Shown piece by piece: positions 14,517-64,000 of a stretch of DNA of 64,000 nucleotides; the first letter of the stretch is position 1, and each line of letters begins with the position of its first letter. The position numbers were made by a program, and so were the translations under genes. Below the pieces are notes generated by a model, which was not told the origin of the DNA, made no database searches, and saw only the letters and a list, made by a program, of their open reading frames with translations. Origin of the DNA: Candidatus Latescibacterota bacterium (lineage in GTDB: Bacteria; Latescibacterota; UBA2968; GCA-2709665); assembly GCA_963662665.2 (NCBI GenBank), contig CAXXJS010000028.1:159432-223431 (forward strand). Reading direction: 5' to 3'.

Positions 14517-16103
14517 TTACTTTGCCAGTACCATCTTGCGCGTGACCACGTCTCTCCCTGCCTGGAGCCGGTACAGGTACAAACCCGTACTCACCTGGCG
14601 CCCGGCCGCGTCGCGCCCATCCCACGCGACCGTATAGTTTCCCTCTGGCTGGAACTGTCGAACCAGCAACCGGACCTCTTGGCCCAATACGTTGTAGATT
14701 GCAAGTTTCACGTTCACCGCCTTGTCCAGCGAATAGCGTATGGAAGTGGCGGGGTTGAACGGATTCGGACGGTTCGGACCCAGCGAAGCCGCCACCGGCC
14801 TGACTGCGCGCACGTCGCCATTCAGATTGACTTCGTAAGTTACTGTTCTGCCGGGCATCAGAGGAATGCTGCTCCAGCTTGCAACGGTCTTACCGTTTGA
14901 CGTACGTACGCGCGCCCGGTACATGCCGTTTACACGACGGCGCGCATCCGCAGTCACTCGCACGACGGCGCGTCCCGTCTCATCAGTCGTCTTTCGCCAC
15001 GCAAAATCAGGCGCGCGGCCGGATATCGAACGCGAGACCTCCACGGTCAGACCGCTAACGTCGCCATCGCCCACGACCTGTACTTCCATCTCGGAGACCT
15101 CTTCGAAAGCCGTATCGTCCTCCAGATATATGCCGGCGCCCACGATAAACGTCTGTCCGAAGACGTTGATCGGGATCACGTAGCTCAGCTTGGGCGACTG
15201 GGTGTCCTCATCTCCGACGACCGCAGGATTGTCCCAGTAATATTTAATGAATCCGCCGCCCGCTACGCCTGTCTCGATGATCTCCTGGACAATCCTCACC
15301 CCGTTGACATCTTCGACGTCGATCAGATTTTCCCCATATTGACTGGGGTCTGCGGTGCCGTGAAAGATCAGTACACCTGAGGTGCTCACGACAAAGATGT
15401 AAATCGAGCCATGTTTGAAATCCTCGCCCTCGGTCCTGATCGCGGCCTGAACGGTTGCCAGGTAGGGATAACCTTTTTCCTCAATTATCGGCACGAGGAC
15501 CCTCAGGCCCTCGACAAAAGCTTTGAGGGACTCCCTGTCCTTCACGTCGCGGGCCGTTACTTCCAGCAAGTCAAAGATGTTCGGCTCGGCTTCGACGTCT
15601 GACAAATCCATATGGAAGCCGCCAACAAGGATGAAGTCCTCCCCGCGAATGGCAACGGGAACCGCGTAGGCGAGTTTGGATGAATCGTCGTCCTCAACGG
15701 CTGGATCGTCCCAATAGTACTCGACGAATCCTCCGTCATCGTCAGCCGCGGCGAGCATATCCGGGACAATCTTCGTACCCCTGTCATCCTCGAGATCGAG
15801 AATATTCTTGTCCTCAAACTTCACGTCGGCCGCGTGAAACTGCACGAGTCCCTCAGCGGTCAGAATGACGAGATAGACCGTGCCGGCTTTCCAGTCATTC
15901 TCGGTCCTGAATGCCTCCACCAGTCGACCCACGGCGGCGAAGTCAGCGGCGTTATCAAGGGAGTCCCTGGCCGATTCCACAAAGGCCTTCAGGGTTTCCC
16001 GGTCCATCACGTCACCTGCCGTCGTCCTGTTGTCCTGTGCAGCCGCAGGATTTGGAGAAAAACAGATACCCGCCAGACTCAAAATGACAAGCAGAGATCT
16101 CAT
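14517..16103 (-). CDS. Secreted protein: signal peptide, two single-Cache-like repeats, RSISGR module, C-terminal FlgD-Ig/sorting-type domain
   Basis: Repeats DRETLKAFVE/DRESLKAFVE...YYWD(D/N)PAV...KL. C-terminal NPFNPATSIRY...IYNVLGQEVR...WDGRD...GLYLYRL. Confidence 0.85.
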   Translation of the reverse strand: MRSLLVILSLAGICFSPNPAAAQDNRTTAGDVMDRETLKAFVESARDSLDNAADFAAVGRLVEAFRTENDWKAGTVYLVILTAEGLVQFHAADVKFEDKNILDLEDDRGTKIVPDMLAAADDDGGFVEYYWDDPAVEDDDSSKLAYAVPVAIRGEDFILVGGFHMDLSDVEAEPNIFDLLEVTARDVKDRESLKAFVEGLRVLVPIIEEKGYPYLATVQAAIRTEGEDFKHGSIYIFVVSTSGVLIFHGTADPSQYGENLIDVEDVNGVRIVQEIIETGVAGGGFIKYYWDNPAVVGDEDTQSPKLSYVIPINVFGQTFIVGAGIYLEDDTAFEEVSEMEVQVVGDGDVSGLTVEVSRSISGRAPDFAWRKTTDETGRAVVRVTADARRRVNGMYRARVRTSNGKTVASWSSIPLMPGRTVTYEVNLNGDVRAVRPVAASLGPNRPNPFNPATSIRYSLDKAVNVKLAIYNVLGQEVRLLVRQFQPEGNYTVAWDGRDAAGRQVSTGLYLYRLQAGRDVVTRKMVLAK

Positions 16104-16172
16104 AATCGCCCTTTCCGGTTAACGGGTTTATTGGTTCACTCAAGCACGGCAGATCAAGATAGTGGCGGGACA

Positions 16173-17153
16173 TCAGAAAGTCAACCCGGGCGGGCACAAA
16201 ACGAACATACAGGCCGCCGCCGCGCATGTCGCCAACAGACAGGTAGCAATGACAAACCGGCACATGCGGCGCATGTCTCCGGGCTGTCCGCCTTCCGGGT
16301 CGGACCCGTCGCCCAGCCAGAGGTCTGTAATCTTCTCTCCATCCTGCCAGATGGGACCTGCCAGACGCCGCTGCACCGCGCCGGCGGCCGTCGCTTCGCT
16401 CCAGCCGGAGTTCGGCCCGGGAACGAGCGCGTGCTGCCGCCATCCGGCAAGCAGCGCCTTGCGGGTGGAACATCCCGGCAGGAAAAAGGCGACAAACGCC
16501 ATCAGCAGATAAGTCAATCGTGCCGGGACATAGTTAAGTACATCGTCCAGCCGGGCGCCGCACCAGCCGAAGTGTCGGTATCGCGGTGTCATGAAGCCCA
16601 CCATTGAATCCATGGTGCTGACCACCTTGAAGAATACGATCCCCGGCAGTCCAAGAACCGCGTACCAGAAGACGGGCGAAACAAACCCGTCCACCGCATT
16701 CTCGCTCAAACTCTCCATACCCGCACGCCGGCAGGCCGCGGCATCCATCGTGTCGGTATCGCGCCCGACAAGCATCGAGACCGCCCTTCGCGCGCCGTCC
16801 GGATCGGCGGCCCGATCAATGGCCAACCCGTGCCTGCACAAGTCCTTAAGCGCGATCATACTAAATATAATATATGCCTGAAATATCCATCCGACCTCAT
16901 ATTGCACGCGGCTCAACACCATCGTCAGGCCACAGAGAACGCCCAGCCAGAACGTGGAGAGCAGCAGCAACAGAATACACCCGCCCACGCGACCGTCCAG
17001 GCGAAGTCGACGCAGCATCCGCTCAATGAGGGACAGTGTCGCGCCAATCAGACGAATCGGGTGCCATGCATAAACCGGGTCGCCGAACAGACCATCCAGA
17101 ACCACCGCGAAAAGGATAAGAAAAGGGTCCGGCGCAAACAGGGTCAGGTCCAT
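16173..17153 (-). CDS. cbiB: Adenosylcobinamide-phosphate synthase CbiB/CobD
   Basis: GDP...HPIR, VGRDT, ESLSENAVDG, TMDSMVG, ARLDDVLNYVPARLT, PNSGWSEA. Confidence 0.93.
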   Translation of the reverse strand: MDLTLFAPDPFLILFAVVLDGLFGDPVYAWHPIRLIGATLSLIERMLRRLRLDGRVGGCILLLLLSTFWLGVLCGLTMVLSRVQYEVGWIFQAYIIFSMIALKDLCRHGLAIDRAADPDGARRAVSMLVGRDTDTMDAAACRRAGMESLSENAVDGFVSPVFWYAVLGLPGIVFFKVVSTMDSMVGFMTPRYRHFGWCGARLDDVLNYVPARLTYLLMAFVAFFLPGCSTRKALLAGWRQHALVPGPNSGWSEATAAGAVQRRLAGPIWQDGEKITDLWLGDGSDPEGGQPGDMRRMCRFVIATCLLATCAAAACMFVLCPPGLTF

Positions 17154-18268
17154 TTCAGACGCCATCCGAGGGCGAGCGCATCGTAAACGAGTTCCAGCAG
17201 GTCGCCTTCCTTCGCGTGAAGCCTGGCGTAACAGAACGGCCACTCCCCGGGTCTCGCTGCCAGCGAAGCCGCCAACGTGGCTGCCTGCTGCCGCAGCACC
17301 GGATCGGCCAACGAATGTGAAATCGCGCCGCATCGCATGCGGTCCCAAACCGCCGCGAACGCGTAGGCCGCCGCCGAAACGCGCGGCTCATATACGACGG
17401 ACTCAAAGTTTTTTTCCAGCAATATGCGTTCTTCTTCCTTCAAACGTATGTCCATCGCCCGCAGAAAACGGTCGCGACGGAACCCGTACCGTTTCAGCGC
17501 GTGGAAAAGGCTTCTCGTATGGGATGGCTCGAGCCCGTTCTGCCATCGCAGGGCTTCCAGTGTGGCTTTGCGTACCGACCTCCCGATCAACTCCCCCAGT
17601 TTCGCGTGATGGCCGGCGTTGGTCTTCGGTGCTCTCGTATCGTCCAGAGGCGCCGCGATACAATACTGGTCGGTCCCGGTGCCCGTCGCGAGATCCTGAG
17701 AATAGCGGCTCGAGACGGCGAGGTCACGCAGTGCGGCGGACTTGCCCTCGGTCATCGTGACTGCCGCACGCGCTATCGCGCCCGGCGTGAGCGGCCAATT
17801 GATGAATACCATGGTATTGATCGTACCCGCGTGCGAATGCGCTTCGATCCAATTTGCATCCTCTTCATGCCAGGCTGCCGGATCGCCCGCACATCCGGCA
17901 TTGCCCTCCACGCCCGCCGTCACAACCGCACACACGCGCAATTCGGCATGGGTTTCTACGGTGTGGGCCGCACAGTTCATATTCGCGGCCGTACCCATCA
18001 CGGCGACGTCATCCGGGGGCAGGCCGCGTTCCTCGCAGACGTGGCGATGATAGCCCGCCTGGCCGAGTTGCCTGATCAACGCAAACCGGGCATCGTGCCC
18101 CGAACCCTCGCAACTCTGGTGATTCAAGAGATATTGGATGCCCGTGCACAAGCCGCCGCGATGCGCTGATGTACTCAGCACCTGGTGGGGCGTCAACAAT
18201 TCCGCGATCAGAAAACGCCCATCGCGACGCAGATCGTAGTGTTCATTGCGATCGATATATTCATTCAT
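17144..18268 (-). CDS. cbiZ: Adenosylcobinamide amidohydrolase CbiZ with C-terminal extension
   Basis: MGTAANM, VTAGVEGNA, GTIN, TEGKS, ATGTGTD, GHHAKLGELIG. Confidence 0.9.
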   Translation of the reverse strand: MNEYIDRNEHYDLRRDGRFLIAELLTPHQVLSTSAHRGGLCTGIQYLLNHQSCEGSGHDARFALIRQLGQAGYHRHVCEERGLPPDDVAVMGTAANMNCAAHTVETHAELRVCAVVTAGVEGNAGCAGDPAAWHEEDANWIEAHSHAGTINTMVFINWPLTPGAIARAAVTMTEGKSAALRDLAVSSRYSQDLATGTGTDQYCIAAPLDDTRAPKTNAGHHAKLGELIGRSVRKATLEALRWQNGLEPSHTRSLFHALKRYGFRRDRFLRAMDIRLKEEERILLEKNFESVVYEPRVSAAAYAFAAVWDRMRCGAISHSLADPVLRQQAATLAASLAARPGEWPFCYARLHAKEGDLLELVYDALALGWRLKWT

Positions 18269-18374
18269 AAGCAGAAAAAGCAGCGGTCAGCAGTCAGTTA
18301 AAAGCAAGAACCAAAGGCAGCCAGGAGCAAAAACGAAAGGCAAAGTCTAATTCCACCTCTCCACCGCCCCGCAG

Positions 18375-18756: not shown

Positions 18757-18762
18757 CGCTAG

Positions 18763-20394
18763 GAGTCTGCGCCGCAGGAGTTTTTACAAAGGGCGAGGTG
18801 TGTCCGTGAGTCGGGTTGGTCGTTATGTTGGGAGTGGTATGATGAGTTTTGGGTACGGTGATCGTTGCAGGCAGGCGTGTTGAGGGCGAGATTCCAGGGA
18901 TCGTGGTTTCCCGTATGTCGAGTCCATAAGGACAGGACACCCGAACCCATGCTTCAACACATCGACAACGCTGCCATCCGCTTGACGTTCAACGCGAGGC
19001 AGACCAGATCCCACTCGGCACGCACCTTTTCCAGCCCCCGGAAGCTGAAGCGCCGGAAGCCCAATACCTCCTTGATCCATCCGTTGGGCGCCTCCGAGAG
19101 CCACTTGCGCTTCGCATACAGGCCCCGACCTTCCGGGCTGGTGAGCTTCTCGCCCATGCGATGGGTCGCCGGAAGCGTCTCCGAATCGACGTCCACCTTT
19201 TCCTTGCCCTCCCGCCCCAGCGCCACGTAACCATCAATGCCACGCTCCTCAAGCGTGGCCAGGTCCTCCTCGTTGCAGTAGCCCGCATCCGCCAGAACCG
19301 CGTCCGGCTTGACCCCGAATGTCTCTTGCACACCATCCAGCAAGGGGAGCATAAAGCCCTGATCGGTGGCCTGTGACCCCAGATGCACAGCCACGATGAT
19401 CTGACGCTCGGCGTCCACCACCGTCTGCGCGTTGTAGCACTGCTGGAACCCCTCCGCGCTCGTCTTCATGATCCGAGACTCGGGGTCCGTGAAGTTGCTC
19501 TGAGCCTTCGGGTCGGGCTCGCCATAGGCTCTTTTGTAAGGCCGCCCGCCCTTCGGGTTGCGCTTCTGACCCGGTTTGCGCCCGCGCGCATCGTCGACGG
19601 CTCGTTGCGATGCTTCCAGACGCTCCCTCGCCGCCCTGATCGCCGCCAGACGAGCCTGCCTGCGCTGCAACTCGACCGGCAACTCGTCGCCACGAACATC
19701 CACGCCGTAACGTGCATCCTCCTCGGCATCAATCGACACAGCACCCGAAAGCAACGCCCCGATCTCTTTCTCCAGACGAGCCTGTTCCTTCAACATCCGC
19801 TCGTAACTCATGGCCTTGCGCTTGCTGGCCTTCGCTCGTACCTTCGTGCCGTCTAAAGATAACGTCCCGAAACGTACCAGGCCCATCTCCCGTGCCACAC
19901 CAACCACCTCCACGAACAAACGCCCGAAATCTTCCAGGTGACGACGCCGAAACTCGCAGATCGTCCGGTGTTGTGGGAAATTGCCCGCCGCCAACATACG
20001 AAACGCCACGTCCTCCTCCAGCTTCCCAGCGATCGCTCGAGACGAATACACTCCCGTCGCGTACCCATAGATCAATACCTTCAACATCATCGATGGATCA
20101 TATGGCGCGTTGCGACGACCATCGCCTTCATAGGGCGCGTAGAACGACCCCAGATCCAGGGAATCCACCAGATCGCTCACCTGGTGCGACAGATGACCTT
20201 CAGGCACCCACTCCCGAAGATCCGGCGCCAACAGCAATATCTGGTCCGGGTGATACGGTCGAAACGTTGTCGGCATGGATCGCTCCCTCCCCTGACATAA
20301 CACACAACGATACCCTTGACATATACCAACTACACGACCCATTATACCTACAACTACATGTCCATTGAAATGAATTTTCCTGCGGCGCAGACTC
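18763..20394 (-). mobile_element. IS1182-family element, 17-bp perfect IRs, flanked by CTAG
   Basis: GAGTCTGCGCCGCAGGA at 18763 and its inverse ending at 20394. CTAG at 18759-62 and 20395-98. Confidence 0.9.
18954..20276 (-). CDS. IS1182-family transposase
   Basis: YDPSMMLKVLIYGY, SSRAI, LDGTKVRA, NFTDPESRIMK, YNAQ, LADAGY, GFRRFSFRG. Confidence 0.93.
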   Translation of the reverse strand: MPTTFRPYHPDQILLLAPDLREWVPEGHLSHQVSDLVDSLDLGSFYAPYEGDGRRNAPYDPSMMLKVLIYGYATGVYSSRAIAGKLEEDVAFRMLAAGNFPQHRTICEFRRRHLEDFGRLFVEVVGVAREMGLVRFGTLSLDGTKVRAKASKRKAMSYERMLKEQARLEKEIGALLSGAVSIDAEEDARYGVDVRGDELPVELQRRQARLAAIRAARERLEASQRAVDDARGRKPGQKRNPKGGRPYKRAYGEPDPKAQSNFTDPESRIMKTSAEGFQQCYNAQTVVDAERQIIVAVHLGSQATDQGFMLPLLDGVQETFGVKPDAVLADAGYCNEEDLATLEERGIDGYVALGREGKEKVDVDSETLPATHRMGEKLTSPEGRGLYAKRKWLSEAPNGWIKEVLGFRRFSFRGLEKVRAEWDLVCLALNVKRMAALSMC

Positions 20395-20597: not shown

Positions 20598-21842
20598 TCA
20601 TCCACCGCCAAATTCCGAGGCGAAGATAAGGAAGTCCTGAAAATCGACCTCTCCATTGCCGTTCAAGTCGAACCTGCCATCGAAGTCATCGTCGCCGGCT
20701 GTCCCGCCAAACGCGGAGGCGAACGCCACGAAGTCGCTGAAATCCACAACGCAGTCCCCATCGAAATCCGCCACGCTGCCCAGGAACGCGATGCTGGACG
20801 GCGGCAGACCCGTGCCGATCGGACCGGCCACAAGCGCATCCGTACTCACGTCGTAGACCTTCACGCCGGCGGATGCCGGATCGCCGAAACTCCCCTGGTC
20901 CAGAACATATAACCTCCGGCCGAACACGCCCAGGCCTGGTACGAATCCGCCGGAAAGACCGTCCAGACTCCGGGAAACCGACTGCGTTGCCAGATCGAGC
21001 CGTTTAACGGCATTGACGAAATTCGCGTCCGTAACCACGGCATACCCAACACTTTCGGATATCATCACCAGAGAACTCAGGTTACCGCCCGCGGTCGCCT
21101 CATCCAGCACAACGCCTTCGCTCCGCATGGTCTCGAGATCGATCACCTCGATGCCGCCGTCGGTCAGATCGGTGTACGAATTTACCGCACTCACGAACCA
21201 CTTGCTGCCTCGCCGGGCGGCACCCGCGGGATTCTTGCTCGCCATCGCGATCCCCTGTACGCCCTCTACAACCGGATCCGCGTCCACCAACATATCGGAG
21301 GCGACGTCAATGACGGCAATGACAGAAAACTCGGTTGGAACCCATCCGTTCTCCCTGTCCAGCCGATGACATGCCGCGAACAAGTGTCCTTCGTGTACCG
21401 CGAGTTGAGACGTTTCAGGCAGGCCGTCGGCATCCGCGAACGTCGAAAGGTCGACCGTTCCCAGCGAATCGCCCGTAACGGGATTGACAACGAGCAATTG
21501 CGTTCGCTCATATAGCGAGACATAGGCTTTCTCTTCATTGACAAAGGCGATGTCGTGGGGATTTGAGCCGTTGCCCGTGGAATATTGTATCAACGGCGTC
21601 GTCAGGTCAGAGATATTCAAGACGATCACATTGTCCTGTCCCAGACGATTGATAACGTACGCCTTGTCGCGATACGTGCGGACGACGGCGTCCGAATGAA
21701 TGGTCAGATGATCGGTCGCCGCCGCATTATTGCCCAGATCCAGACTCGATAATCCGCCGCTGCTGTAGTCCGTTGTGGTAACGACCGCCTGATTGGCCAG
21801 TGCATCCGTCGCAAGAAACAGAACGAGCAACAACCATCTCAT
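20598..21842 (-). CDS. Secreted YncE/BtuG-like beta-propeller with C-terminal dockerin-like double EF-hand
   Basis: Signal peptide, NPHDIAFVNEEKAYVSLY blade motif, and C-terminal DFDGDCVVDFSDFVAFASAFG and DLNGNGEVDFQDFLIFASEFG. Confidence 0.75.
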   Translation of the reverse strand: MRWLLLVLFLATDALANQAVVTTTDYSSGGLSSLDLGNNAAATDHLTIHSDAVVRTYRDKAYVINRLGQDNVIVLNISDLTTPLIQYSTGNGSNPHDIAFVNEEKAYVSLYERTQLLVVNPVTGDSLGTVDLSTFADADGLPETSQLAVHEGHLFAACHRLDRENGWVPTEFSVIAVIDVASDMLVDADPVVEGVQGIAMASKNPAGAARRGSKWFVSAVNSYTDLTDGGIEVIDLETMRSEGVVLDEATAGGNLSSLVMISESVGYAVVTDANFVNAVKRLDLATQSVSRSLDGLSGGFVPGLGVFGRRLYVLDQGSFGDPASAGVKVYDVSTDALVAGPIGTGLPPSSIAFLGSVADFDGDCVVDFSDFVAFASAFGGTAGDDDFDGRFDLNGNGEVDFQDFLIFASEFGGG

Positions 21843-21958
21843 TAAATCCTCCCCTCGGGTAAAGTGTTCGTGACATCGACCGGATATTTCAAACTGCGCC
21901 GGACAGGTAGACGGAGACGGGTGCGCTCCGGGGCCATCGCAATCCGTCCCACCATTGC

Positions 21959-24154: not shown

Positions 24155-24157
24155 AAG

Positions 24158-25285: not shown

Positions 25286-25476
25286 ATCGACCTCCAGCCG
25301 TAAACCTCTACCCCTCAACCTCACCGGGGTAGACGTGAGACGCAAGACGTGAGTACAAGCAGAGCCGACGTCAAGCCGTGCCGGGTAACCCGCCACAACA
25401 CACTTCACGCATCTTTCGGCTATCCGGTGGTGTTGGGCGGCCCCCTTACGTCTACCGTCTCACCTCTTACCGCCTC

Positions 25477-50007: not shown

Positions 50008-50008
50008 T

Positions 50009-50752: not shown

Positions 50753-50766
50753 TCGGAGGGCGGGCA

Positions 50767-53051: not shown

Positions 53052-53152
53052 ATTGCCTCTTTTGTGGAGGACGATTCGATTGCTGACGTTTGGTACGCCG
53101 GTCGGTAAGACTCTCGAATTGCGCATCCAATATAACGCAACAGGTTAACGCA

Positions 53153-53926: not shown

Positions 53927-53949
53927 CGCAGCCCGACAGGGAGAGATCA

Positions 53950-55692: not shown

Positions 55693-55743
55693 TTGCGGCA
55701 AATGGGATCACAGTACCGGGCAGACGGGATGCGGGACAGGACG

Positions 55744-56406
55744 CTAATAGGGCCGCATCTGTACGGCGAGTGCAAGCGACAGTTCAATTTCAGTGATCGC
55801 CCGGAACGTTGCCTGCCCGATCAGATCGAGCTTCCGTACCTGGTTGATGCGGGGAGCGACGCGCGTCAGCTCTCTGGCGGACAATATCTGGCTGAAAAGG
55901 TTGCAGGCGTGCGCGAGGCTGATGATTACCACGTCGCGTGGGTCGGGGATCTCGTCGCTGAAAAGGATCTCCAGAATTCTGAGCTTGACCTCCCGTTCGG
56001 CCTGGTCGTCCACAACGGGATATCGCCGCGACCGGAAGACCCACAGAAACCGGTCATCGCGGCGTTCCAGGATGCCTTTTTCCACCAGCCGGTCCAGACA
56101 CTGCTCGCGAATACCCGCAGCACTGCGAATGGCGGTGCGTTCCACCCAGAAGCGCGCGTCGTGGGTTTCGGTCGTTTGCGAAACGTCCGCAAGCGTCGGA
56201 TCGAGAAGGCTGTCCCCAACGGGGGTCGAATCCACCAGGACAAGCTTCTGAGGATCGGTGTCGATACGGTTTTCCATTGCCAGGTCCATCAGCACCCCGC
56301 CGGCAAGCGCATAGCGCAATGACTGATTCGGCACACGGGCAAATTTCCCGTTCTCGTCGTCGAGTATGAGAAGCAGGAGTTCTTCGGGGAATCTCAGCAT
56401 CTTCAT
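55744..56406 (-). CDS. GPP34/GOLPH3-family protein
   Basis: EELLLLILDD, LAGGVLMDL, GDSLLD, LVEKGIL...FLWVF...RYP. Confidence 0.88.
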   Translation of the reverse strand: MKMLRFPEELLLLILDDENGKFARVPNQSLRYALAGGVLMDLAMENRIDTDPQKLVLVDSTPVGDSLLDPTLADVSQTTETHDARFWVERTAIRSAAGIREQCLDRLVEKGILERRDDRFLWVFRSRRYPVVDDQAEREVKLRILEILFSDEIPDPRDVVIISLAHACNLFSQILSARELTRVAPRINQVRKLDLIGQATFRAITEIELSLALAVQMRPY

Positions 56407-56663
56407 TTCCTTTCTTGAATGGAAGTAGATATTCAATATAAATGATACGGCAAGTTGGCGCATTGTCAAGCCTGCGACCTCACCCTCCGCCCCCTGCCGC
56501 GGGGTAGACGTTAGACGGGAGATGATTTGAGTGCCGGTTCGGTTTCATATCTTGCCGGAGGCATAAAAGGAAGAGTCAATCGGGCAAGGACGTCTTCTAC
56601 CGTCTCCCGGCTTACGTCTTACCGCCCTCAAACGACCTGACAGGACACTAAGGGCACGATGCG

Positions 56664-58286
56664 ATGAAATGTGACTTGAATGCGCTGCGGGGCGACATAT
56701 ATGGCGGCGTCATGGCAACCGCGGCGGCGCTGCCCGTGGCGTTGGCCCTGGGCGTCGCCTCGGGAATGGGCGCGGCGGCCGGAATGTACGGGGCGATCGC
56801 GGTGGGCTTCTTTGCGACGGTATTCGGCGGTACACGGACGCAAATATCGGGCCCCACGGCGCCGATGACCGTCGGACTGGTCGTTATTGTCTCCAGCTAC
56901 ACTTCCAACCTGACCGAGGCGCTGACAGTCGTCGTCATGGCCGGTCTGCTTCAGGTACTCCTTGGTGTGTCGAGGATCGGCCGTTTCATCGCCTATACGC
57001 CGTATGTGGTCACCTCCGGGCTCATGGCGGGGGTTGGGATCATTATCATGGTGATTCACATCCTGCCGTTTCTCGGGTTCCCGACGGCGCCGGGAGGCTT
57101 CGTCGGCACGATTCGCGCCGTGTCCGATGCGGTGGACAACGTCAATTACAACGCGTTGGCTATCGCGGCCGTCGCGCTCGCCGCCGGAGTGCTCTGGCCA
57201 CGCCGTTTGGCGCGGTACCTTCCGGGCCCCCTGCCAGCGCTCGTTGCAGGGACCCTGCTGGGCGTTTTCTGGCTGGAGGACGTGCCGGTCATCGGAGCGA
57301 TACCCGCCGGCCTGCCCGATCTGCAACTGACGCTTCCCACGGTCTCCTTTCTGATGATGGCGCTGGAACCTGCGCTCATCCTCGCGCTTCTCGGTTCGGT
57401 AGACAGCCTCCGCGCTTCTCTGGTCGCGGATTCGCTGACCGGTACCAGGCACAATCCGAGCCGGGAACTGGTGGGGCAGGGTATCGGCAATATGGTCTCG
57501 GGACTGTTCGGGGGCCTTCCCGGCGCGGGGTCGACGACCGGAACCGCAGTCAATATACGTGCCGGAGGCAAAACATCCGTCTCGGGTGCGCTATATGCGG
57601 TACTCATGCTCGGTCTCCTGATCGGTCTCGGTCGGTACGTGGAGCAGGTTCCCCTCGCCGTTCTCGGGGGCATTCTGTTGAAAGTCGGATGGGACGTCAT
57701 AGACTGGCGTCTTCTTGTACGCGTACACCGCCTGCGGCGCGAGCATCTCATCGTCTTGATGATTACGCTTGGGCTGACGCTGTCTGTCGATCTGGTAACG
57801 GCCGTGGCGATCGGCCTGATCGCCGCCGCGATGGCGCACGCCCGGCAATTGGAGCGTCTGGAGCTGGACAGCGTGGTTTCCATGCCGATGCTGGACCGGA
57901 CGTTCTTTTCAGAAGAGGATGACATCGACGTGGCCGCCTTCAGCCCGGACTCGGCCCGCGTGGGGCTGGTGGCGCTGAGTGGAAGCCTCACCGTCGCATC
58001 GTCCCACAAGCTGGCCGGCGTGATCGGTGCGAACGTCAAGGAACACGACGTGGTGATCCTGGACTTTTCCGGGGCCACGTATCTCGACGACAGCGCAGCC
58101 ATGGCTATCGGACAGCTCATGGGAATCGCCAGAGGCGAGCAGACCGAATGCATTGTGATGGGACTCTCCGGCCTGGTTCCGAGAACCCTGCACGCGCTGG
58201 GCATCTTGAAACATCTACCCAGGCATCGCGTAGTCGAAACGCTGGACGAGGCGCGCCAGGTTGCAAGGAGTATAATCGGGCTCTAA
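56664..58286 (+). CDS. SulP/SLC26 anion transporter with STAS domain
   Basis: LPVALALG, FGGTRTQISGPTAPM, ELVGQGIGN, ILDFSGATYLDDSA. Confidence 0.93.
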   Translation: MKCDLNALRGDIYGGVMATAAALPVALALGVASGMGAAAGMYGAIAVGFFATVFGGTRTQISGPTAPMTVGLVVIVSSYTSNLTEALTVVVMAGLLQVLLGVSRIGRFIAYTPYVVTSGLMAGVGIIIMVIHILPFLGFPTAPGGFVGTIRAVSDAVDNVNYNALAIAAVALAAGVLWPRRLARYLPGPLPALVAGTLLGVFWLEDVPVIGAIPAGLPDLQLTLPTVSFLMMALEPALILALLGSVDSLRASLVADSLTGTRHNPSRELVGQGIGNMVSGLFGGLPGAGSTTGTAVNIRAGGKTSVSGALYAVLMLGLLIGLGRYVEQVPLAVLGGILLKVGWDVIDWRLLVRVHRLRREHLIVLMITLGLTLSVDLVTAVAIGLIAAAMAHARQLERLELDSVVSMPMLDRTFFSEEDDIDVAAFSPDSARVGLVALSGSLTVASSHKLAGVIGANVKEHDVVILDFSGATYLDDSAAMAIGQLMGIARGEQTECIVMGLSGLVPRTLHALGILKHLPRHRVVETLDEARQVARSIIGL

Positions 58287-58353: not shown

Positions 58354-58412
58354 CGCTTCGACGATTCGACAAGCTCAACGCACGCAAGTTCAATGCAGGC
58401 GAGCTCAGCGTC
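58354..58412 (+). repeat. Nested TTCGACAAGCTCA REP-like repeat
   Basis: GCTTCGAC-GATTCGACAAGCTCAACGCA-CGCAAGTTCAATGCA-GGCGAGCTCAGC. Confidence 0.6.
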
Positions 58413-58886: not shown

Positions 58887-60404
58887 ATGTTTGGAAGTCT
58901 TCGCAGCGTATTCGTGTTGGCGCTTTCCGCGGGATTAATCTGGGGCTGCGGGAGCGAACGCCTGACAACGTCGCAGGTTCCCGAGGCGGGCGAAGGCGCC
59001 GGTCAGCCCGCCGGCAAGCTGGCCATCAATGGCATGATGCGGGCCGTGGTGGTTGCCAACGTGCGGGACGGTAGCGCCGGTGTAAGCGGCGTCACCGTTG
59101 AGTTCGCGCGCTCGGTTTCAGGTCGCACGACAGAATTCGAATGGTCGGTGACGACCAACGCGCGAGGGCAGGCCTACGTGGATATCGGGGGCGCCGGAGT
59201 GACCGGCTACTATCGAGCGCGGGCGATGCGGGACGGGAGCGAAGTCGGTTCGTGGACTAGCATACCGGTTAACAGCGGATATCAGTCGCAGGTTGAATTG
59301 CCGCTTGGCGACAAGGCGCGTGCGGGCGGGTCAATTGCGCTGACGCCCGGCGGTCTCCCCGCAAAGATAGCCATCGGTTTCGCCATGCCGCTGACCGGAC
59401 CTCAAGACGTGTACGGCCTGCCGGCGTTGGAAGGCTTCGAGCTGGCTCAGAAAGAGATCAATGCCTCTTCCAGGCTCGGCGGCGCAAGTATCGAATTTAT
59501 CGTCGAGGATACTGAGGGCACGATCGACGCCGCCACTGCAGCTTTCAACAAACTCATCAACGAAGACGGCGTAAACGTTATTCTGGGCCCCGGTATTTCC
59601 ACCGTGGGAACGGACGTGTTCCCAATCGCCCAACAGAACGAAGTCCTGGCATTCAGTTCAACCTCGACCGCTGTCGGCCTGAGCGCGATCGGCGACTATA
59701 TTTTCCGCTCCGGTCTCAACGTGGGTACGCTGGTTCCGGGCGCCGTCAAGGACCTGCAGGAGAAATTGAGGTTTAGCAGGGTCGCCACAATGGTGGACGA
59801 CGCCGACGTCTATTCACGGAGCCTGGACGAGGCGGTAAGCAATGCCCTGGTGGAAGGCGAAGTGGAAATTCTGAGCAGGGAGACCTTTGCAACGGGAGAT
59901 ACATCGTTCGCGGACCAGTTGAACAACATCAAGGATTTGAATCCGCACGCCCTCTTTGTTTCGTGTCTGGCGTCGGAGATGATAAAGATTATGGTCCAGG
60001 CCCGGGAAGTTGGCATTCCCTCGGATATTCCCATAATCATTCCTGAAATGACGATGGATGAAGTGACCGCCGCCAACGAGGCCGCGGAACGCGTGATCAG
60101 CATTACGAGTTGGGCAACCAACGCTTCCACGCCGGGGAACCAGACCTTTATCGAAAGTTATATGGCGGAACACGAGAGCGAACCAGGTCCGTGGGCCGCG
60201 CTTTCATACGCGTCTCTGAATATTCTCGCGGACGCAATCGCGGCAGCCGGGTCGACGGATGCCGGGGCGATTAAAGACGAGCTGGCCAAGACGCAGGACA
60301 TCGACACGATTCTGGGCCGCTTTTCATTCAACGCCGACGGCGACGCGGTCTACGATCCCATTGTCCTGATCGTCCGCGACGGCGCCTTCGAGCTGTTCGA
60401 GTAG
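58887..60404 (+). CDS. Lipoprotein: RSISGR module + LivJ-like type-1 substrate-binding domain
   Basis: Lipobox LIWGC, RSVSGR...SWTSIP, IGFAMPLTG, GDYIFR, LGRFSFNADGD. Confidence 0.9.
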   Translation: MFGSLRSVFVLALSAGLIWGCGSERLTTSQVPEAGEGAGQPAGKLAINGMMRAVVVANVRDGSAGVSGVTVEFARSVSGRTTEFEWSVTTNARGQAYVDIGGAGVTGYYRARAMRDGSEVGSWTSIPVNSGYQSQVELPLGDKARAGGSIALTPGGLPAKIAIGFAMPLTGPQDVYGLPALEGFELAQKEINASSRLGGASIEFIVEDTEGTIDAATAAFNKLINEDGVNVILGPGISTVGTDVFPIAQQNEVLAFSSTSTAVGLSAIGDYIFRSGLNVGTLVPGAVKDLQEKLRFSRVATMVDDADVYSRSLDEAVSNALVEGEVEILSRETFATGDTSFADQLNNIKDLNPHALFVSCLASEMIKIMVQAREVGIPSDIPIIIPEMTMDEVTAANEAAERVISITSWATNASTPGNQTFIESYMAEHESEPGPWAALSYASLNILADAIAAAGSTDAGAIKDELAKTQDIDTILGRFSFNADGDAVYDPIVLIVRDGAFELFE

Positions 60405-60479
60405 AGTACACGTCTCCAGCCTCTGGATGCCATTGTGTCCGGAGGCTGTTTTACGTTTAAATCGCGGGCAGGCTCCGGC

Positions 60480-60693
60480 GTCCATAGTGGCCGATGGCGG
60501 AACGTTATTTATCGACCGCGTCGCGTTGTGCGCGGAGATCGAGGCGACGGCCGGTTTCCCCGGCCTTATCGGCGAACTCACGTGCGACGAGTTCGGAGAC
60601 TGCGGCACCGGGGTTGTAAACATCTACCGCCACGCGGACACGAGCATCGTAGACCCGGCGGAGTTGCCTGTGGTCTATCGTTTCGAGGCGTGA
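60480..60693 (+). pseudogene. C-terminal remnant of a paralogue of the 62100-63710 SBP
   Basis: LTCDEFGDCGTGVVNIYRHADTSIVDPAELPVVYRFEA is close to the 62100 protein C-terminus. Confidence 0.85.
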
Positions 60694-60970
60694 GACGCGG
60701 CCGGCAGTCGTGATGAGGATCGGATTCGGGGTTCGTTCTCTTTCGATGCAGATTGGAACGCTGTTCAGGGACCGTCCGCACTGATTTTCGGCGATGGCCT
60801 GTTTCGGATACCCGGGTGTGCCTGCGATTCACCGGCCAGGAGTATCCGTACCGGATGGTTGGTAATACATAAATGACAGGCAGTGAATGCTGCTTGTCAT
60901 TTTGCGCTTTGGTGGAGGGCGATGCTCTGCCCTATTCGCCTGACTTCGCTGGAATTTGAGGAGGTCCGGT

Positions 60971-61966
60971 TTGTTCAGCAATATCCGAGGTGCGCTGGTA
61001 TTTGCGCTCATCGCTGGCGTGAGCTGGAGTTGCGGCAGCGAACGCCTCGCAACGTCGCAGCATCAGGAAGCAGAAGACGCGGTCGGTCCGGCGGCGGGCA
61101 AACTCGCTGGAGCCGGAAACACAACTCGGGCCTCCGTCATCGTTCGCGTCCGTCAAGGCCAGACGCCTCTGAGCGGCGTCACCGTGGAGTTCGCTCGATC
61201 CGTCTCCGGGCGGGTGGCGGATTATGCGTGGTCCGGTAAGGCGGACCCGCGAGGGCGCGCGCACGTCGAGATTGCAGGAAACGGGGTGAGCGGTTATTAT
61301 AGTGCGCGGGCCATGCAGGGCGAGACCGCACTGGGTTCCTGGTCCAGCATTCCCGTCAACGCGGGATACGAATCCCGGATAGAATTACCGGTCGGTGAAA
61401 AGTCCCGTGTAACCGCCACATTAAGGTTGACGCCGGGAGGCCTTCCCGAGCAGATTCCGATCGGCCTGGTACTTCCGTGGGAAGAGCAACAGCGCCCCTT
61501 CATTCAGCCTGTTATGAATGGATTTGAACTCGCCCGCGCGGAGATTAACGGTTCTTCCCGGCTGGGCGGAGCGTCCATCGCGTTCATTGTCGGGAATTCC
61601 CGGGCCACCGCGGAAGGCGCGGTTGAAGCGTTCGACACGTTGATTCATCAGGACGCTGTACCGGTGATTCTCGGTCCGGCGCTTTCTACGGGCGCCGTCG
61701 CGGCTTTCCCCGTGGCGCAGCAGAACCAGGTCGTCGCCTTCAGTTCAACTTCGGTTGTCCCAGGCCTGAGCGCGATCGGCGACTACATTTTCCGCGCCGG
61801 TCTCAGCCTGGGCGTACTCGTGCCCGGGGGCGTCGAACAGACGAAGGAGAAGCTGGGGTATCGCCGGGTGGCGACAATGGTCGATCAGAGTGATTTGTTC
61901 GCCCGCGCCAGCGACGAAGGGCTCAGGAGCGCGTTGACCGATGCGGGGGTCGAGATTTTCGAGTGA
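60971..61966 (+). pseudogene. Lipoprotein RSISGR module + internally deleted LivJ-like domain
   Basis: Lipobox VSWSC. Collinear with the 58887 protein up to VEI, then ends FE*, missing about 170 aa. Confidence 0.8.
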
Positions 61967-62099
61967 TCTCGGTTTCCTGTGTTCCATTGCGAGCGCGCCA
62001 GGAGATGGTTCTTGTCGGATTCGAACACCCGTATAAAAAGCGACTAACCAACCACTCCTGTTAATCTCACAGGCGGAATTCCAACCGGAGGTCTTTGCC

Positions 62100-63710
62100 A
62101 TGTTAGCCAGTGTTCGCAGTCTGCTTGTGTTCGCGGTTGTTGCAGCCGTAACCTGGAGTTGCGGGGGTGAACGCCTGACGAAATCGCAGGTACCGGAGGC
62201 TGACCATCGAACCGGCCAGCCATTGGGAAAACTGGCTTTCGGTGGAGACACCACACCCGCACTGGTGGTGGCCCGCGTGATGCAGGGCGAAAATCCGGTA
62301 AGTGGCGTCACCGTGGAAATCGCACGATCCATTTCCGGGCGTTCGGCCGAATACGAGGCGTCGGGAACGACCGACGCAGGTGGCCGGGCGCGGGTGGAGA
62401 TCGGCGGATCGGGGGGTTACTACCGCGTACGGGCGATGCAGAACGGAAGCCGGCTGGGATCGTGGTCCAGTATACCCATAAAGGGTGGATACGAAACGAA
62501 CGTCGATTTGCCGGTTGGGGACAAGGCGCGCGTTACGGGTTCGTATGAGCGGGCCCTGGTTGCGATTGGCGAGGGCCAGACCGTGCATATCCGGTCGCTG
62601 CTCACCCACACGATCGCCGCATCTCTTGGTGATCCGTCGCGCAACGCCGTTGAGTTGGCCGTCCAGGACTACGGATCCGTTCACGGCCGCGACGTCGAAC
62701 TCGGCGATCCGATAGACGGCATGTGCGGGGCGGACGGCGGACGGGCGGGCGCGGAGCAGATCGTCGCCGATTCACGGGTGCTTGGCGTTATCGGAACTTC
62801 ATGCTCCGGCGCGGCGGTGGCGGCCTCACCGGTCATCAGCGCGGCAGGTCTGGTGATGATCTCACCGTCCAATACGTCGCCGAGATTAACGTCCGACCTG
62901 GCGGGCAACGCGAGTTCCGACTATCATCCGGGTTATTTCCGGCTTGCGGTTAACGATCTCTACCAGGCGCGGGCCGTCGCCGATTTCGCGTACAATGAAC
63001 TGGGTCTGAGGCGCATGGTGGCCGTCGACGACGGCGATGCCTATACAACGGCCCTCGTCAGCGCGTTCGGCAATGCGTTCGCCGCCGTCGGCGGCGAGGT
63101 TTCCGTCAGCGCGCAGATCGACAAGGGGCAGACTGACATGACACCGGTTCTCGCGGAATTCGCGGAAGCGGGGCCGGACGGCATCTTCTTCCCGCTCTTC
63201 GACGAGGAAGGTCTGCCGTTCGCGAAACAGGTGCGGGAATTCGACGGCCTGGAGGGCGTGACCCTCATCACGGGCGCCGCCTTGCTCGATTCGGAGTTTC
63301 TCGCTACACCTCAGTCCGAGGGCGTTTACGCGGCGGGACCCGAGGCGGATCTCGGCTCGAATATCAATGCCATTACCGGCAAGAGCGTGGACGAGGCATT
63401 GACGGCGTATGACGCGGCGTACGGCGGGTTCCCGGGCACGCCGTACTGGGCGCATTCCTACGATGTCACAACGCTGCTGCTCAGCGCCATCGAGTCCGTG
63501 GCGATTGCAAGGGGCGGAAACCTGATCGTGGACCGCAACGCGCTGCGCAGGGAACTCCACGCGACGTCCGGTTTTCAAGCTCTCGTCGGAACGCTCGCCT
63601 GCGATGAATTCGGCGATTGCGGTACCGGACGCATCAACATCTACCACCACACGGACACGAGCGTCACCGATCCCTCGCAGTTGCCCGTGGTCTATCGGTT
63701 TGAGCCGTAA
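62100..63710 (+). CDS. Lipoprotein: RSISGR module + branched-chain-amino-acid-type SBP (second subtype)
   Basis: Lipobox VTWSC, RSISGR...SWSSIP, GVIGTSCSGAA, ISPSNTSP, GYFRLAVND. Confidence 0.9.
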   Translation: MLASVRSLLVFAVVAAVTWSCGGERLTKSQVPEADHRTGQPLGKLAFGGDTTPALVVARVMQGENPVSGVTVEIARSISGRSAEYEASGTTDAGGRARVEIGGSGGYYRVRAMQNGSRLGSWSSIPIKGGYETNVDLPVGDKARVTGSYERALVAIGEGQTVHIRSLLTHTIAASLGDPSRNAVELAVQDYGSVHGRDVELGDPIDGMCGADGGRAGAEQIVADSRVLGVIGTSCSGAAVAASPVISAAGLVMISPSNTSPRLTSDLAGNASSDYHPGYFRLAVNDLYQARAVADFAYNELGLRRMVAVDDGDAYTTALVSAFGNAFAAVGGEVSVSAQIDKGQTDMTPVLAEFAEAGPDGIFFPLFDEEGLPFAKQVREFDGLEGVTLITGAALLDSEFLATPQSEGVYAAGPEADLGSNINAITGKSVDEALTAYDAAYGGFPGTPYWAHSYDVTTLLLSAIESVAIARGGNLIVDRNALRRELHATSGFQALVGTLACDEFGDCGTGRINIYHHTDTSVTDPSQLPVVYRFEP

Positions 63711-63741
63711 GGCCCTGAACTCCAAAAAACAGGGGAATCCA

Positions 63742-64000
63742 ATGCGTAGTCTATCTTTCCGTATCCGCAGTGTGTTGTTACCGGCTCTATCCATATGCGC
63801 AGCATGGGGTTGCACCGGCGATCGTATGACGACGTCTCAGGTACCGGAGGTCGACGGGCAGGCGGTGCGGCCGCTCGGCAAACTGGCTTCGGGTGGGGAA
63901 CAGGCGTTGGCGATTGTGGTGGCCCGCGCAACGCAAAATCAGGCGCCCGTAAGTGGCGTCACCGTAGAACTCGGACGATCCGTTTCGGGGAGGGCGGCGG
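63742..64000 (+). CDS. Next lipoprotein paralogue with RSISGR module (runs off window)
   Basis: Manual translation MRSLSFRIRSVLLPALSICAAWGCTGDRMTTSQVPE...PLGKLA...PVSGVTVELGRSVSGRAA. Confidence 0.88.
   Translation, partial: MRSLSFRIRSVLLPALSICAAWGCTGDRMTTSQVPEVDGQAVRPLGKLASGGEQALAIVVARATQNQAPVSGVTVELGRSVSGRAA

Follow-up and report, generated by a model that had tools for sequence, protein, structure and literature searches.

A domain of about 98 aa with the motifs RS[IV][SA]GR … W[SN]SIP lies beside the anchor, at a distance of approximately 25 residues, in 86 of the 96 exported proteins for which its position was decidable. It is found next to both the lipid anchor of probable lipoproteins and the T9SS sorting domain. 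We infer that this module is a lineage-specific, anchor-proximal pedestal of exported envelope proteins, and that its LivJ-type heads serve tethered capture or sensing; taken together with the view that the module is a divergent offshoot of the Big_1/CarboxypepD_reg (transthyretin-like) superfamily, we give this reading a slightly better than even chance. Five copies are present in the window, the whole 64,000-nt stretch analyzed here (Candidatus Latescibacterota bacterium, GCA_963662665.2, CAXXJS010000028.1, positions 159,432-223,431, forward), and 11 in the genome.

The module coordinates and bit scores below were obtained with a profile from alignment A1, which recovered the module at all five sites proposed in the initial annotation.

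14517..16103, minus strand: exported protein of 528 aa with signal peptide, two Cache domains, module and T9SS type A sorting domain
14529..14768, minus strand: T9SS type A sorting domain (aa 446-525; TIGR04183, 39.6 bits, cut-off 23; also Por_Secre_tail)
14808-15110, minus strand: module copy 1 (aa 332-432; 117.6 bits)
58887..60404, plus strand: probable lipoprotein of 505 aa with leader ...LIWGC-GSERLTT..., module and HAAT-type (LivJ-like) domain
59028-59321, plus strand: module copy 2 (aa 48-145; 142.1 bits; 27 residues from Cys21)
60409..60687, plus strand: relic comprising the C-terminal ~93 residues of a binding-protein paralogue (pseudogene fragment; tblastn)
60956..61966, plus strand: shortened array gene, 336 aa, with leader, module and only the first half of the binding domain
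61115-61408, plus strand: module copy 3 (aa 54-151; 142.0 bits)
62100..63710, plus strand: probable lipoprotein of 536 aa with leader, module and a domain of the second HAAT subtype
62244-62531, plus strand: module copy 4 (aa 49-144; 133.1 bits)
63742..63999, plus strand: start of the fifth array gene, with leader ...AAWGC-TGDRMTT... and module from 63895; stops at the contig end
63895-63999, plus strand: module copy 5, partial (29.3 bits over profile positions 3-35; ends with the window, which is the end of contig C28)

When the copy in the 58887 gene was used as query, the remaining copies in the genome were detected with E values of 1.6e-32 to 6e-13 and the cut copy with 7.2e-4; these values exclude chance similarity. 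Across the ten full copies, identity to the first is 38-58%, and 9 alignment columns are invariant. Furthermore, modules are 41-58% identical between proteins with unrelated heads, two of which share only 28% identity with each other. Among 107 representatives, 12 module positions are at least 90% conserved, and the conserved polar residues include R27, S28, S30, R32, D43, R64 and N81. This polar pattern suggests a conserved contact. To judge from the sequences, conservation appears to be above the expectation for a passive spacer, and a shared docking partner may be involved. In line with its description as unrecognised, no Pfam-A or NCBIfam model matched the module above cut-off, and we regard it as a domain family unnamed in the current versions of both collections. 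The nearest clusters in a protein atlas were unnamed or CarboxypepD_reg bearing (scores 0.91-0.94, taken as leads only), and the literature outside subscription journals yielded nothing on the module or on T9SS in Latescibacterota.

Modeled alone with AF2, the module has 7 strands (pLDDT 88.7). VIA-align matched it to 3e8v (Z 11.1; rmsd 2.3 over 81 residues), the SlaB stalk (Z 10.2), the transthyretin-like domain of carboxypeptidase D (5aq0; Z 10.0; rmsd 2.8 over 79 residues), CnaB2 (Z 8.9), the SusC N-terminal domain (8.5), the SdrD B domains (8.0-8.4) and transthyretin (8.1-8.6), and Foldseek gave 13 matches at E≤1e-3. Several of the structural matches are domains which we take to be stalks or spacers. 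The model and these matches agree with the beta-rich, transthyretin-like character proposed earlier: the predicted fold is a 7-strand transthyretin/CarboxypepD_reg/Big_1-like sandwich, a fold class in common with the CarboxypepD_reg and Big_1 families, among which the N-terminal extension of SusC-type TonB receptors is also counted.

A full-length match to such a generic spacer family, which had been named as evidence against the proposal, was not obtained, as all CarboxypepD_reg and Big_1 matches were below cut-off. No module copy reached the PF13620 (CarboxypepD_reg) gathering score of 32.3 bits; the copies of the window's genome scored up to 18.4 bits, the best relative (P0097) 30.6 bits, and 2 of 10 members matched (best E 1.8e-4). 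Likewise, the PF02369 (Big_1) gathering score of 34.9 bits was reached by no copy; in the window's genome the maximum was 23.5 bits, for the contig C48 protein, and 6 of 10 members matched (best E 8.5e-5). A T-D-x-x-G turn of the module recurs in the single CarboxypepD_reg domain of the TonB receptor encoded in the window. This resemblance is not significant, and the profile-profile comparison of that domain with A1 was uninformative (probability 0.2). The module profile also matched giant proteins in 5-36 partial stretches (positions ~8-70; E down to 6.3e-56). The four of them that were scanned are Big_1/Invasin_D3 repeat proteins, in which the last third of the module was unmatched. The giant Big_1 proteins gave no WSSIP-type match and just five isolated RSxSG-type matches. 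They lack the RSxSGR loop and the WSSIP strand, whereas the module has both, and they are tandem Big_1 arrays, whereas the module is single in each protein.

The module is restricted to one class of Latescibacterota and occurs in 84 of the phylum's 168 genomes, with 4-21 copies per genome in the genus of the window's genome (21 being the maximum overall); at E≤1e-3, its profile matched 647 cluster representatives. These numbers bear out the lineage restriction and high copy number that had been anticipated, as did the heads described below for diversity. Related loci were scanned for with the five closest copies (A2), a choice that favours close relatives; of the 158 confirmed stretches (58 loci), the best 80 are covered here.

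Module position was surveyed in the 150 best representatives, 110 of which contain a full-length match, always one module per protein. In 45 of the 110 (form A), a lipobox Cys is followed by the module with a median gap of 27 residues (15-47), and in 38 (form B), the module is followed by a PNPx sorting-domain start with a median gap of 25 residues (13-41). The rest consists of one protein with both anchors, 14 fragments and 12 classified as other; in two of the latter (P0049 and P0067) the Cys leader was overlooked by the search pattern. The module is away from the anchor in ~10 of the 96 decidable proteins, for example with LamG (P0072, P0102) or LRRs (P0136) between it and the sorting domain.

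Pfam analysis of 94 of these proteins revealed ~20 unrelated head families. They include Cu/Zn superoxide dismutase, esterases, di-haem peroxidase, cytochrome P460, nuclease/phosphatase, peptidase inhibitor, SnoaL, WD40, LRR, NHL, LamG and ligand binders. Both forms and the range of heads confirm that the module is independent of head fold, of N- or C-terminal position and of export route. The label of a ligand capture or sensing system was too narrow, since heads are also enzymes, repeat proteins and a peptidase inhibitor. The constant feature is anchor adjacency, for which a pedestal accounts no less well than an adaptor to a common receptor. As an annotation rule, the end of an exported protein at which the module lies can be taken as the anchor-proximal one.

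A form A protein is built of signal peptide, Cys, a conserved linker of ~27 residues, module and any head, and a form B protein of any head, module, a linker of ~25 residues and a T9SS type A sorting domain. The module is the first folded domain by the anchor in either form. According to the pedestal model, this anchor would be a lipid attached to the Cys in form A and the C-terminus remaining after sorting-domain removal in form B, and the module would keep the working domain off the membrane. Leader and module would move jointly between lipoproteins while the heads are exchanged, and the LivJ-type heads of the genus would act as tethered capture or sensing proteins.

The lipoprotein leader is itself conserved. 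In the pattern [LM]W[GSH]-C-G-G-[ED]-R-V-T, the Cys is present in 48 of 48 leaders, Gly at +1 in 36 and Glu or Asp at +3 in 35, and in nearly all complete leaders the Cys is 17-26 residues from the start. The lipobox is atypical rather than classical: 26 of the 48 leaders have Trp at -2, and 7 have His at -1. LspA (PF01252) was detected above cut-off in the window's genome, in which 5 of 8 matches to the leader pattern are module proteins. Form A proteins are probable lipoproteins and may be surface exposed. Near-identical modules (the module tree is a quick IQ-TREE tree) carry differing heads: two Peripla_BP_6 domains in P0013, an esterase in P0016 and Peripla_BP_6 plus SBP_bac_3 in P0014; Peripla_BP_6 plus Sod_Cu in P0021 and Sod_Cu alone in P0026. 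We read leader plus module as a portable cassette onto which heads get swapped in the lipoprotein form. Such a cassette would be a clear instance of modular evolution. The use of one domain beside both kinds of anchor offers a way to study how a phylum of uncultured bacteria assembles and reshuffles its envelope proteins.

In the binding-protein array at 58887-63999, the claim that all three full module copies precede a type-1 binding domain, of one of two subtypes, holds for the 58887 and 62100 genes. Their Peripla_BP_6 domains (aa 161-488, E 3.5e-53, 181.9 bits; aa 173-499, E 1.2e-33, 117.6 bits; cut-off 31.7 bits) have 4gnr (E 6.1e-34) and 4n0q (E 5.9e-15), respectively, as nearest solved chains and represent two subtypes with 28% identity. 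The third gene (60956..61966) is incomplete: it covers Peripla_BP_6 positions 1-166 of 343, aligns with 82% identity to residues 28-363 of a 540-aa orthologue, and its junction is spanned without differences by contigs from two other runs. The relic at 60409..60687 aligns at 68% identity with an array gene of a relative (residues 447-537; tblastn), and the 92-aa ORF at 60435-60710 matched no Pfam family. Beyond the window end, a contig from another run extends the sequence; 485 letters on, it resembles the first head at 59618-59722, from which it differs in 17 of 105 letters. The full-length AF2 model of the 58887..60404 protein (pLDDT 86.5, pTM 0.84) has disordered residues 1-49 and an ordered connector, and each 10-residue block from residue 51 averages a pLDDT of at least 82; module and head are predicted to be rigidly coupled. 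Such a connection, like the conserved polar residues, would speak against a merely passive spacer.

The array has neither an ABC permease or ATPase nor a signalling output next to it in the window, as noted initially. Cognate permeases just past the window had been regarded as a possible counterargument, but three complete syntenic chromosomes contain no importer permease beyond the array; the genes located downstream of it encode a PLP decarboxylase, a glyoxalase and a DHDPS-family protein. We therefore dropped the idea that the array is an ABC operon continuing past the contig end. Moreover, BPD_transp_2 (PF02653, LivH/M type) was detected in none of the 15 genomes of the genus, including the window genome (G000, 92% complete) and five single-contig genomes of 97-100% completeness; the control of this search was positive in 12 of 14 known genomes. 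Because no such permease is encoded, the heads cannot feed a LivHM-type ABC importer in this genus. Peripla_BP_6 nevertheless has 12-14 matches per genome in the four genus genomes counted, about half of them module tethered in the window's genome, and the array proteins lie in tandem as sets of 5-6 paralogues that include no transporter genes. To us, this is a more surprising result than the module, and it makes the question of transporter-less binding proteins testable. On genus-wide orphan LivJ-type proteins, the literature outside subscription journals contained nothing.

At the other locus, Pfam agreed with the Cache-Cache-module-FlgD-Ig order described for the 14517..16103 protein (dCache_2 3.9e-33 in two stretches; FlgD_ig 6.9e-10, aa 454-515). 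Module copy 1 ends 13 residues ahead of the sorting-domain match (aa 446). SprA_N was above cut-off in the window's genome (105.9 bits), and PorU-like (222 bits vs 420) and PorV-like (144 vs 250) matches were below their equivalog cut-offs. SprA is present in 159 of the 168 phylum genomes, compared with 84 for the module, and the module precedes only 4 of 17 FlgD_ig-type sorting domains in the window's genome. Thus, T9SS export is independent of the module, and the module as a T9SS requirement was dropped. The same counts bear on a broader role as an export or sorting element, acting in lipoprotein flipping to the outer leaflet or in sorting-domain recognition or cleavage, as proposed in gingipains for the Ig-like domain that adjoins the sorting domain. 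The location beside an export or anchor signal (86 of 96) and the conserved leader after the Cys speak for such a role, but a single element for two unrelated export routes would also be unparsimonious, and we rate it as very unlikely. Still less probable, in our view, is a polymerisation unit in which modules of different proteins would join through edge strands, like transthyretin-like domains, to form a mixed lattice at the surface. Transthyretin-like and CnaB-like folds do occur in oligomers and pili, and copies are many per genome; however, there is no pointer in the sequence, pilin-type sorting motifs are absent, and every one of the 110 full-length cases has a single module. The prediction of a two-copy module complex (A1), run without controls, scored 0.00 and counts neither way.

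The initial interpretation as a whole is partly supported; no partner, scaffold or polymer was found. As a docking adaptor, the module would bind one envelope partner (either a protein of the outer membrane or an anionic polymer, for example lipopolysaccharide) through its conserved RSxSGR/WSSIP surface, and interchangeable heads would thereby be joined to a common scaffold or receptor. The strong conservation across unrelated proteins, including three conserved arginines (R27, R32 and R64) plus polar residues, the 4-21 copies per genome in the genus and the exchange of heads on a constant module favor this reading, and orphan binding proteins need a partner to deliver or signal their ligand. 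Yet no candidate partner emerged, neighbours of module genes vary between loci, many heads, being enzymes or repeat proteins, have no need of a receptor, and a pedestal alone accounts for the positional rule. Judging by strand topology, both the RSxSGR loop and the one that follows WSSIP seem to sit at the domain's N-terminal end, which would make them membrane facing in form A and head facing in form B, so that they would point opposite ways relative to the anchor. We regard docking as possible but rather unlikely. A doubtful extension, to which we attach a small probability as a whole, is a unified surface display: lipoproteins and T9SS cargo would dock via the arginine-rich RSxSGR/WSSIP face on the same component of the envelope, which might be anionic lipopolysaccharide or a dedicated outer-membrane protein, and in the genus lacking all LivHM-type permeases the expanded arrays of docked LivJ-type heads would constitute ABC-free amino-acid capture or sensing, with ligand handed to an outer-membrane channel, secondary carriers or sensor kinases.

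The pedestal reading has parallels in Bacteroidota, which use unrelated Ig-like domains where this class of Latescibacterota has one conserved domain beside both the lipid anchor and the T9SS sorting domain. According to work on SGBP-B, surface glycan-binding lipoproteins have N-terminal Ig-like/PKD "membrane spacer" domains (PMC7974029). As in form A, a small beta-sandwich directly follows the lipid anchor and precedes the ligand-binding head, and there the spacer is taken to keep the binding site away from the membrane, the role that we propose for the module. SGBP-B belongs to another phylum, and its sequence family is unrelated. Unlike it, the module is strongly conserved (RSxSGR, WSSIP), carries many kinds of heads including enzymes, and also occurs at a C-terminal anchor; in addition, SGBP-B is described as "beads on a loose string", whereas module and head are predicted to be rigidly coupled. 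Form B resembles the gingipains RgpB and Kgp and PPAD, in which an IgSF domain before the T9SS sorting domain is proposed to act as "spacer or insulator" (PMC4804311): a seven-strand sandwich lies between working and sorting domains, with a short linker. This comparison concerns placement and fold, not sequence. In contrast to the IgSF domain, the module also follows lipoprotein anchors, and it is carried by 4 of the 17 sorting-domain proteins of the genome.

The array heads themselves resemble LivJ/HAAT binding proteins, with Peripla_BP_6 above cut-off and binders of branched-chain and other amino acids (4gnr, 4nqr, 3td9, 2lbp) as nearest solved chains. The array proteins differ from them in the additional N-terminal module, the probable lipid anchor, the tandem arrangement and the lack of a LivH/LivM permease in the genus. 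In the TorT/TorS system, a histidine kinase relays the signal of a type-1 binding protein. A comparable layout was seen on contig C48. The window array has no kinase nearby, and no link between the module and signalling emerged. On C48, the gene of a module-less Peripla_BP_6 protein immediately precedes that of a kinase. The kinase has HAMP, HisKA and HATPase domains and a weak TorS-sensor-like match (E 6.2e-5, below cut-off), and a module-bearing binding lipoprotein follows.

A profile of A1, our alignment of ten copies of the ~98-aa module from the source genome (G000), placed all five copies that the initial annotation had described in the window, each borne by its own ORF. The whole genome has 11 copies with E-values of 7.2e-4 or lower, of which ten reach 6e-13 or lower. 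Identity of the ten full copies to the first is 38-58%, with nine invariant columns in the alignment, a resemblance far beyond chance. Copies and genes are as follows.

Module copies (profile of A1) and module-bearing genes (domain matches) in the window
14808-15110, minus strand: module copy
59028-59321, plus strand: module copy
61115-61408, plus strand: module copy
62244-62531, plus strand: module copy
63895-63999, plus strand: module copy cut by the contig end
14517-16103, minus strand: gene for two Cache stretches, module, FlgD_ig/TIGR04183
58887-60404: gene for Cys leader, module, Peripla_BP_6
60956-61966: shortened array gene, matching Peripla_BP_6 profile positions 1-166 of 343 only
62100-63710: gene for Cys leader, module, Peripla_BP_6 of another subtype

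The architectures proposed earlier held for 14517-16103, whose T9SS type A sorting domain scored 39.6 bits with TIGR04183 (cut-off, 23), and for 58887-60404 and 62100-63710, but not for 60956-61966, which is truncated. The heads (the working domains besides the module) of 58887-60404 and 62100-63710 are 28% identical and their modules 58%. The window ends with its contig, C28. A contig of run X2 spans 63627-63999 and extends past this end; 485 letters further, 105 of its letters align to 59618-59722 of the first head with 17 differences, which suggests that the cut fifth gene probably has a binding domain too.

Set against a complete relative's array (relatives' loci L013 and L048), the window shows a relic of a binding-domain C terminus at 60409-60687, and the second array gene (60956-61966) ends after residue 363 of 540. 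For the third array gene of the relative, no counterpart was found at ≥60% identity. The tandem array in G000 is thus decaying. Contigs from two other runs span the junctions without differences, so the truncation of 60956-61966 is not an artefact of the G000 assembly.

No Pfam-A or NCBIfam model reached its cut-off on the module. Below threshold, Big_1 matched 6 of the 10 copies (best E, 8.5e-5) and CarboxypepD_reg 2 of the 10 (best E, 1.8e-4), next to MG2, bMG3 and further families. AlphaFold2 on A1 returned a confident seven-strand sandwich (pLDDT 88.7, pTM 0.79), with transthyretin-like, CarboxypepD_reg and CnaB-type domains as structural neighbours. The matches were 3e8v (Z 11.1, rmsd 2.3 over 81 residues), the SleC N-terminal domain (Z 10.9), the S-layer stalk protein SlaB (Z 10.2), the transthyretin-like domain of carboxypeptidase D (Z 10.0), CnaB2 (Z 8.9), the SusC N-terminal extension (Z 8.5) and SdrD B domains (Z 8.0-8.4); Foldseek agreed (E about 1e-4).

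A search of the module profile against 1.84 billion cluster representatives detected 647 proteins at E≤1e-3, of which 308 reached E≤1e-10. Among the best 150 of the 647, about 40 were giant proteins with 5-36 matches each, covering only profile positions ~8-70, and the four giants that were scanned are Big_1/Invasin_D3 repeat proteins; the other 110 had a single full-length match apiece. Since the giants match partly and repeatedly and the 110 once over the full length, the module is a branch of the Big_1/CarboxypepD_reg superfamily that has diverged and occurs as a single copy. It is marked by a B-C loop reading R-S-[IV]-[SA]-G-R and a strand reading W-[SN]-S-I-P, and in 107 representatives twelve positions are at least 90% conserved (R27, G31, W38, T42, G46, G59, Y61, A63, W75, S77, I78 and P79). 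We conclude that it is a new sequence family inside a known fold, in a known kind of role.

The heads were surveyed with Pfam on 94 single-match proteins from the best 150. Binders and sensors (Peripla_BP_6 in 10 proteins, Cache in 11, and OpuAC) were found along with enzymes and redox proteins (SnoaL in 6; Cu/Zn superoxide dismutase, esterases and Exo_endo_phos in 2 each; di-haem peroxidase, cytochrome P460, multihaem cytochrome and SGL), with repeat and related domains (WD40 in 7, LRR and LamG/pentaxin in 3 each, NHL in 2) and with a chagasin-type inhibitor, PrcB_C and Temptin_C; numerous proteins had no head family at all. Given so many enzyme and repeat heads, the term "ligand-binding heads" is too narrow, and the suggestion that the module is specific to ligand binders was not borne out. 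Module heads outside the window include WD40, LRR, NHL and LDL-receptor repeats. On other contigs of G000, a module lipoprotein (C48, 19940-21046; L074:5943-7046, minus strand) carries a ~150-residue C-terminal head without a Pfam family, and the head of a 415-aa protein on C49, with the module between head and sorting domain, has no assignment.

What is constant in module proteins is anchor adjacency, not ligand binding. In 45 of the 110 proteins a lipobox-like Cys precedes the module (median gap, 27 residues; range, 15-47), and in 38 the module precedes the PNPx start of an FlgD_ig-type sorting domain (median gap, 25; range, 13-41). One protein has both signals, 14 are fragments and 12 were classed as "other", including two (P0049 and P0067) with a Cys leader that is visible though missed by the pattern. 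Altogether, of the 96 proteins that could be decided, 86 have the module next to an anchor. In the others it is internal: LamG lies between module and sorting domain in P0072 and P0102, and LRRs do so in P0136.

These arrangements define form A (signal peptide, Cys, linker, module, head) and form B (head, module, linker, T9SS type A sorting domain). The form A leader is conserved as [LM]-W-[GSH]-C-G-G-[ED]-R-V-T-x-S, and a PL[GS]KLA motif precedes the module. This leader is almost restricted to module proteins in G000, where they make up five of the eight pattern hits and two more were missed by the pattern. Among 48 form A leaders, including those of 58887, 60956, 62100 and 63742, the lipobox is atypical (26 have Trp at -2 and 7 have His at -1), and the motif after the Cys, G-G-[ED]-R, is strongly conserved. 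The leader motif may act as a sorting signal specific to this lineage.

We inferred a quick maximum-likelihood tree of 117 modules, 107 from representatives and 10 from G000, leaving out giants >1300 aa and partial matches. It contained a clade of 38 with 27 form B and 1 form A members (SH-aLRT 96), a clade of 37 with 35 form A members, and a mixed group without resolution. Form changed 10 times on the tree, at least two changes being forced by well-supported branches, compared with 31 changes for shuffled labels. Sister modules on short branches differ in their heads: P0013 has two Peripla_BP_6, P0016 an esterase, and P0014 Peripla_BP_6 plus SBP_bac_3; similarly, P0021 has Peripla_BP_6 plus Sod_Cu and P0026 Sod_Cu alone. 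Heads have been exchanged on a constant leader-module unit, and this unit has switched anchor type at least twice.

The module is restricted to certain lineages. Scanning one genome for each of 185,579 species with patterns derived from the closest copies, which favours near relatives, confirmed 158 stretches. The best 80 of these represent 58 loci: 46 come from records whose titles name Latescibacterota or Latescibacteria, 9 from three MAGs labelled Gemmatimonadota and 3 from one MAG labelled "uncultured bacterium." At E≤1e-10, the module occurs in 84 of 168 phylum genomes, including 21/21 of its own family (f1), 29/31 of the second family of the order (f2), 3/3 of a third family (f3) and 30/76 of a fourth family, of the same class (f4), and in 0/36 genomes of the ten other families. 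Genomes of the own genus have 4-21 copies, and five chromosome-level relatives gave 17, 20, 21, 8 and 8 matches. The initial annotation's interpretation is partly right: different proteins share the module, which is mobile and restricted to a lineage, and the heads on it are interchangeable.

The best-supported role of the module is that of an anchor-proximal pedestal, which would be rigid rather than a bead on a string. In a full-length model of the 505-aa protein, residues 1-49 are disordered, and module, ordered connector (with an extra strand at 145-152) and head have pLDDT >80. The head comprises only about 345 of the 505 residues, yet pTM is 0.84, which would require a confident module-head orientation and so suggests a rigid pedestal. 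The CnaB, SdrD B and SlaB neighbours are domains that we take to be stalks or spacers. Such stalk-like neighbours, the anchor-adjacency rule and two Bacteroidota precedents count for a pedestal; in one of the precedents (PMC4804311), an IgSF domain preceding a T9SS sorting domain is termed a "spacer or insulator." The docking function favored by the initial annotation, in which the module binds a shared partner, is possible: modules on unrelated proteins are 41-58% identical, and there are conserved polar residues, three arginines among them. The seven-strand topology would place the B-C loop, with RSxSGR, and the F-G loop, which follows WSSIP, at the domain's N-terminal end. In form A this end would face the anchor, in form B the head, an argument that cuts both ways.

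We also considered whether the module is a T9SS requirement and rejected this, since SprA is present in 159 of the 168 phylum genomes and the module in only 84, and since just 4 of G000's 17 FlgD_ig sorting domains have the module before them. In G000, SprA and LspA scored over their cut-offs, and PorU-like and PorV-like matches (eight of the latter) under theirs. It is unusual that one domain family serves both lipoprotein and T9SS anchors.

The array heads are of the HAAT type, their nearest solved chains being amino-acid binding proteins (4gnr, E 6.1e-34; 4n0q, E 5.9e-15). The locus order, syntenic in relatives, is a 257-aa protein, an NCS2 permease, GPP34, SulP/STAS and the tandem binding lipoproteins with the module. 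The block upstream of the array (53090-58286) is conserved in loci L013-L019; its NCS2 permease is of the xanthine/uracil type with a ~180-aa C-terminal extension, and GPP34 is Golgi phosphoprotein 3-like. The window copy of the 257-aa protein matched no Pfam or NCBIfam family and, with its signal-peptide-like start, may be an outer-membrane protein. Three complete chromosomes have 5 or 6 module-bearing array genes, followed by genes for a PLP decarboxylase, a glyoxalase and a DHDPS-family protein; an exporter-type ABC gene pair lies about 10 kb from the array in two of them.

As the initial annotation had noted for the window, an ABC partner is lacking: none of the three complete chromosomes has an importer permease near the array. 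Moreover, PF02653 (LivH/LivM, also RbsC type) had no match in G000 (92% complete) or in 14/14 other genus genomes, five of them single-contig, with 97-100% completeness. The control search gave matches in 12/14 known genomes; most other genera of the order keep 2-6 such genes, and in the sister family (f2) they were found in 29/31 genomes. In another genome that has these permeases (G004), the 200 kb on either side of each are free of module copies. Among four genus genomes counted, Peripla_BP_6 had 12 matches in G000, 5 with the module (2 truncated) and 7 without, and 13-14 in three complete relatives. We conclude that the genus' array heads cannot serve a canonical HAAT importer. A genus rich in LivJ-type proteins without LivHM is unusual.

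A locus on C48 (22614-29391; L074:8614-15388) encodes an RR-SpoIIE phosphatase, an anti-sigma-type kinase, a module-less Peripla_BP_6 protein, a histidine kinase and a module-bearing binding lipoprotein. With an upstream STAS gene, the first two form a partner-switching set beside the histidine kinase, in which HAMP, HisKA and HATPase domains are joined by a weak TorS-sensor-like match (E 6.2e-5; 23.1 bits, cut-off 27). The locus looks like a binding-protein-dependent sensing unit and is a local precedent for a role other than canonical import. The array proteins may either capture nutrients or sense them. In the window, 48643-52068 encodes a module-less Peripla_BP_6 protein (454 aa), then a small sCache_3_2 protein of 247 aa and a transporter of the MFS type, again without ABC genes.

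The Cache-module-sorting-domain gene lies within a cobalamin salvage and uptake neighbourhood (11657-18268 and 20598-25408) with FecCD permease, ABC ATPase, HicA with probable HicB, CobD, CbiZ, Peripla_BP_2 and a TonB-dependent receptor with a CarboxypepD_reg N-terminal domain. Three transposase sets are present at 4605-6955 (IS21-like rve and IstB), 18954-20342 (DDE_Tnp_1 with DUF772) and 26003-27367 (DDE_Tnp_1_4). Eukaryote-like proteins are encoded at 33523-35247 (574-aa ankyrin-repeat protein), 52269-53126 (eukaryotic-type carbonic anhydrase) and 55744-56469 (GPP34).
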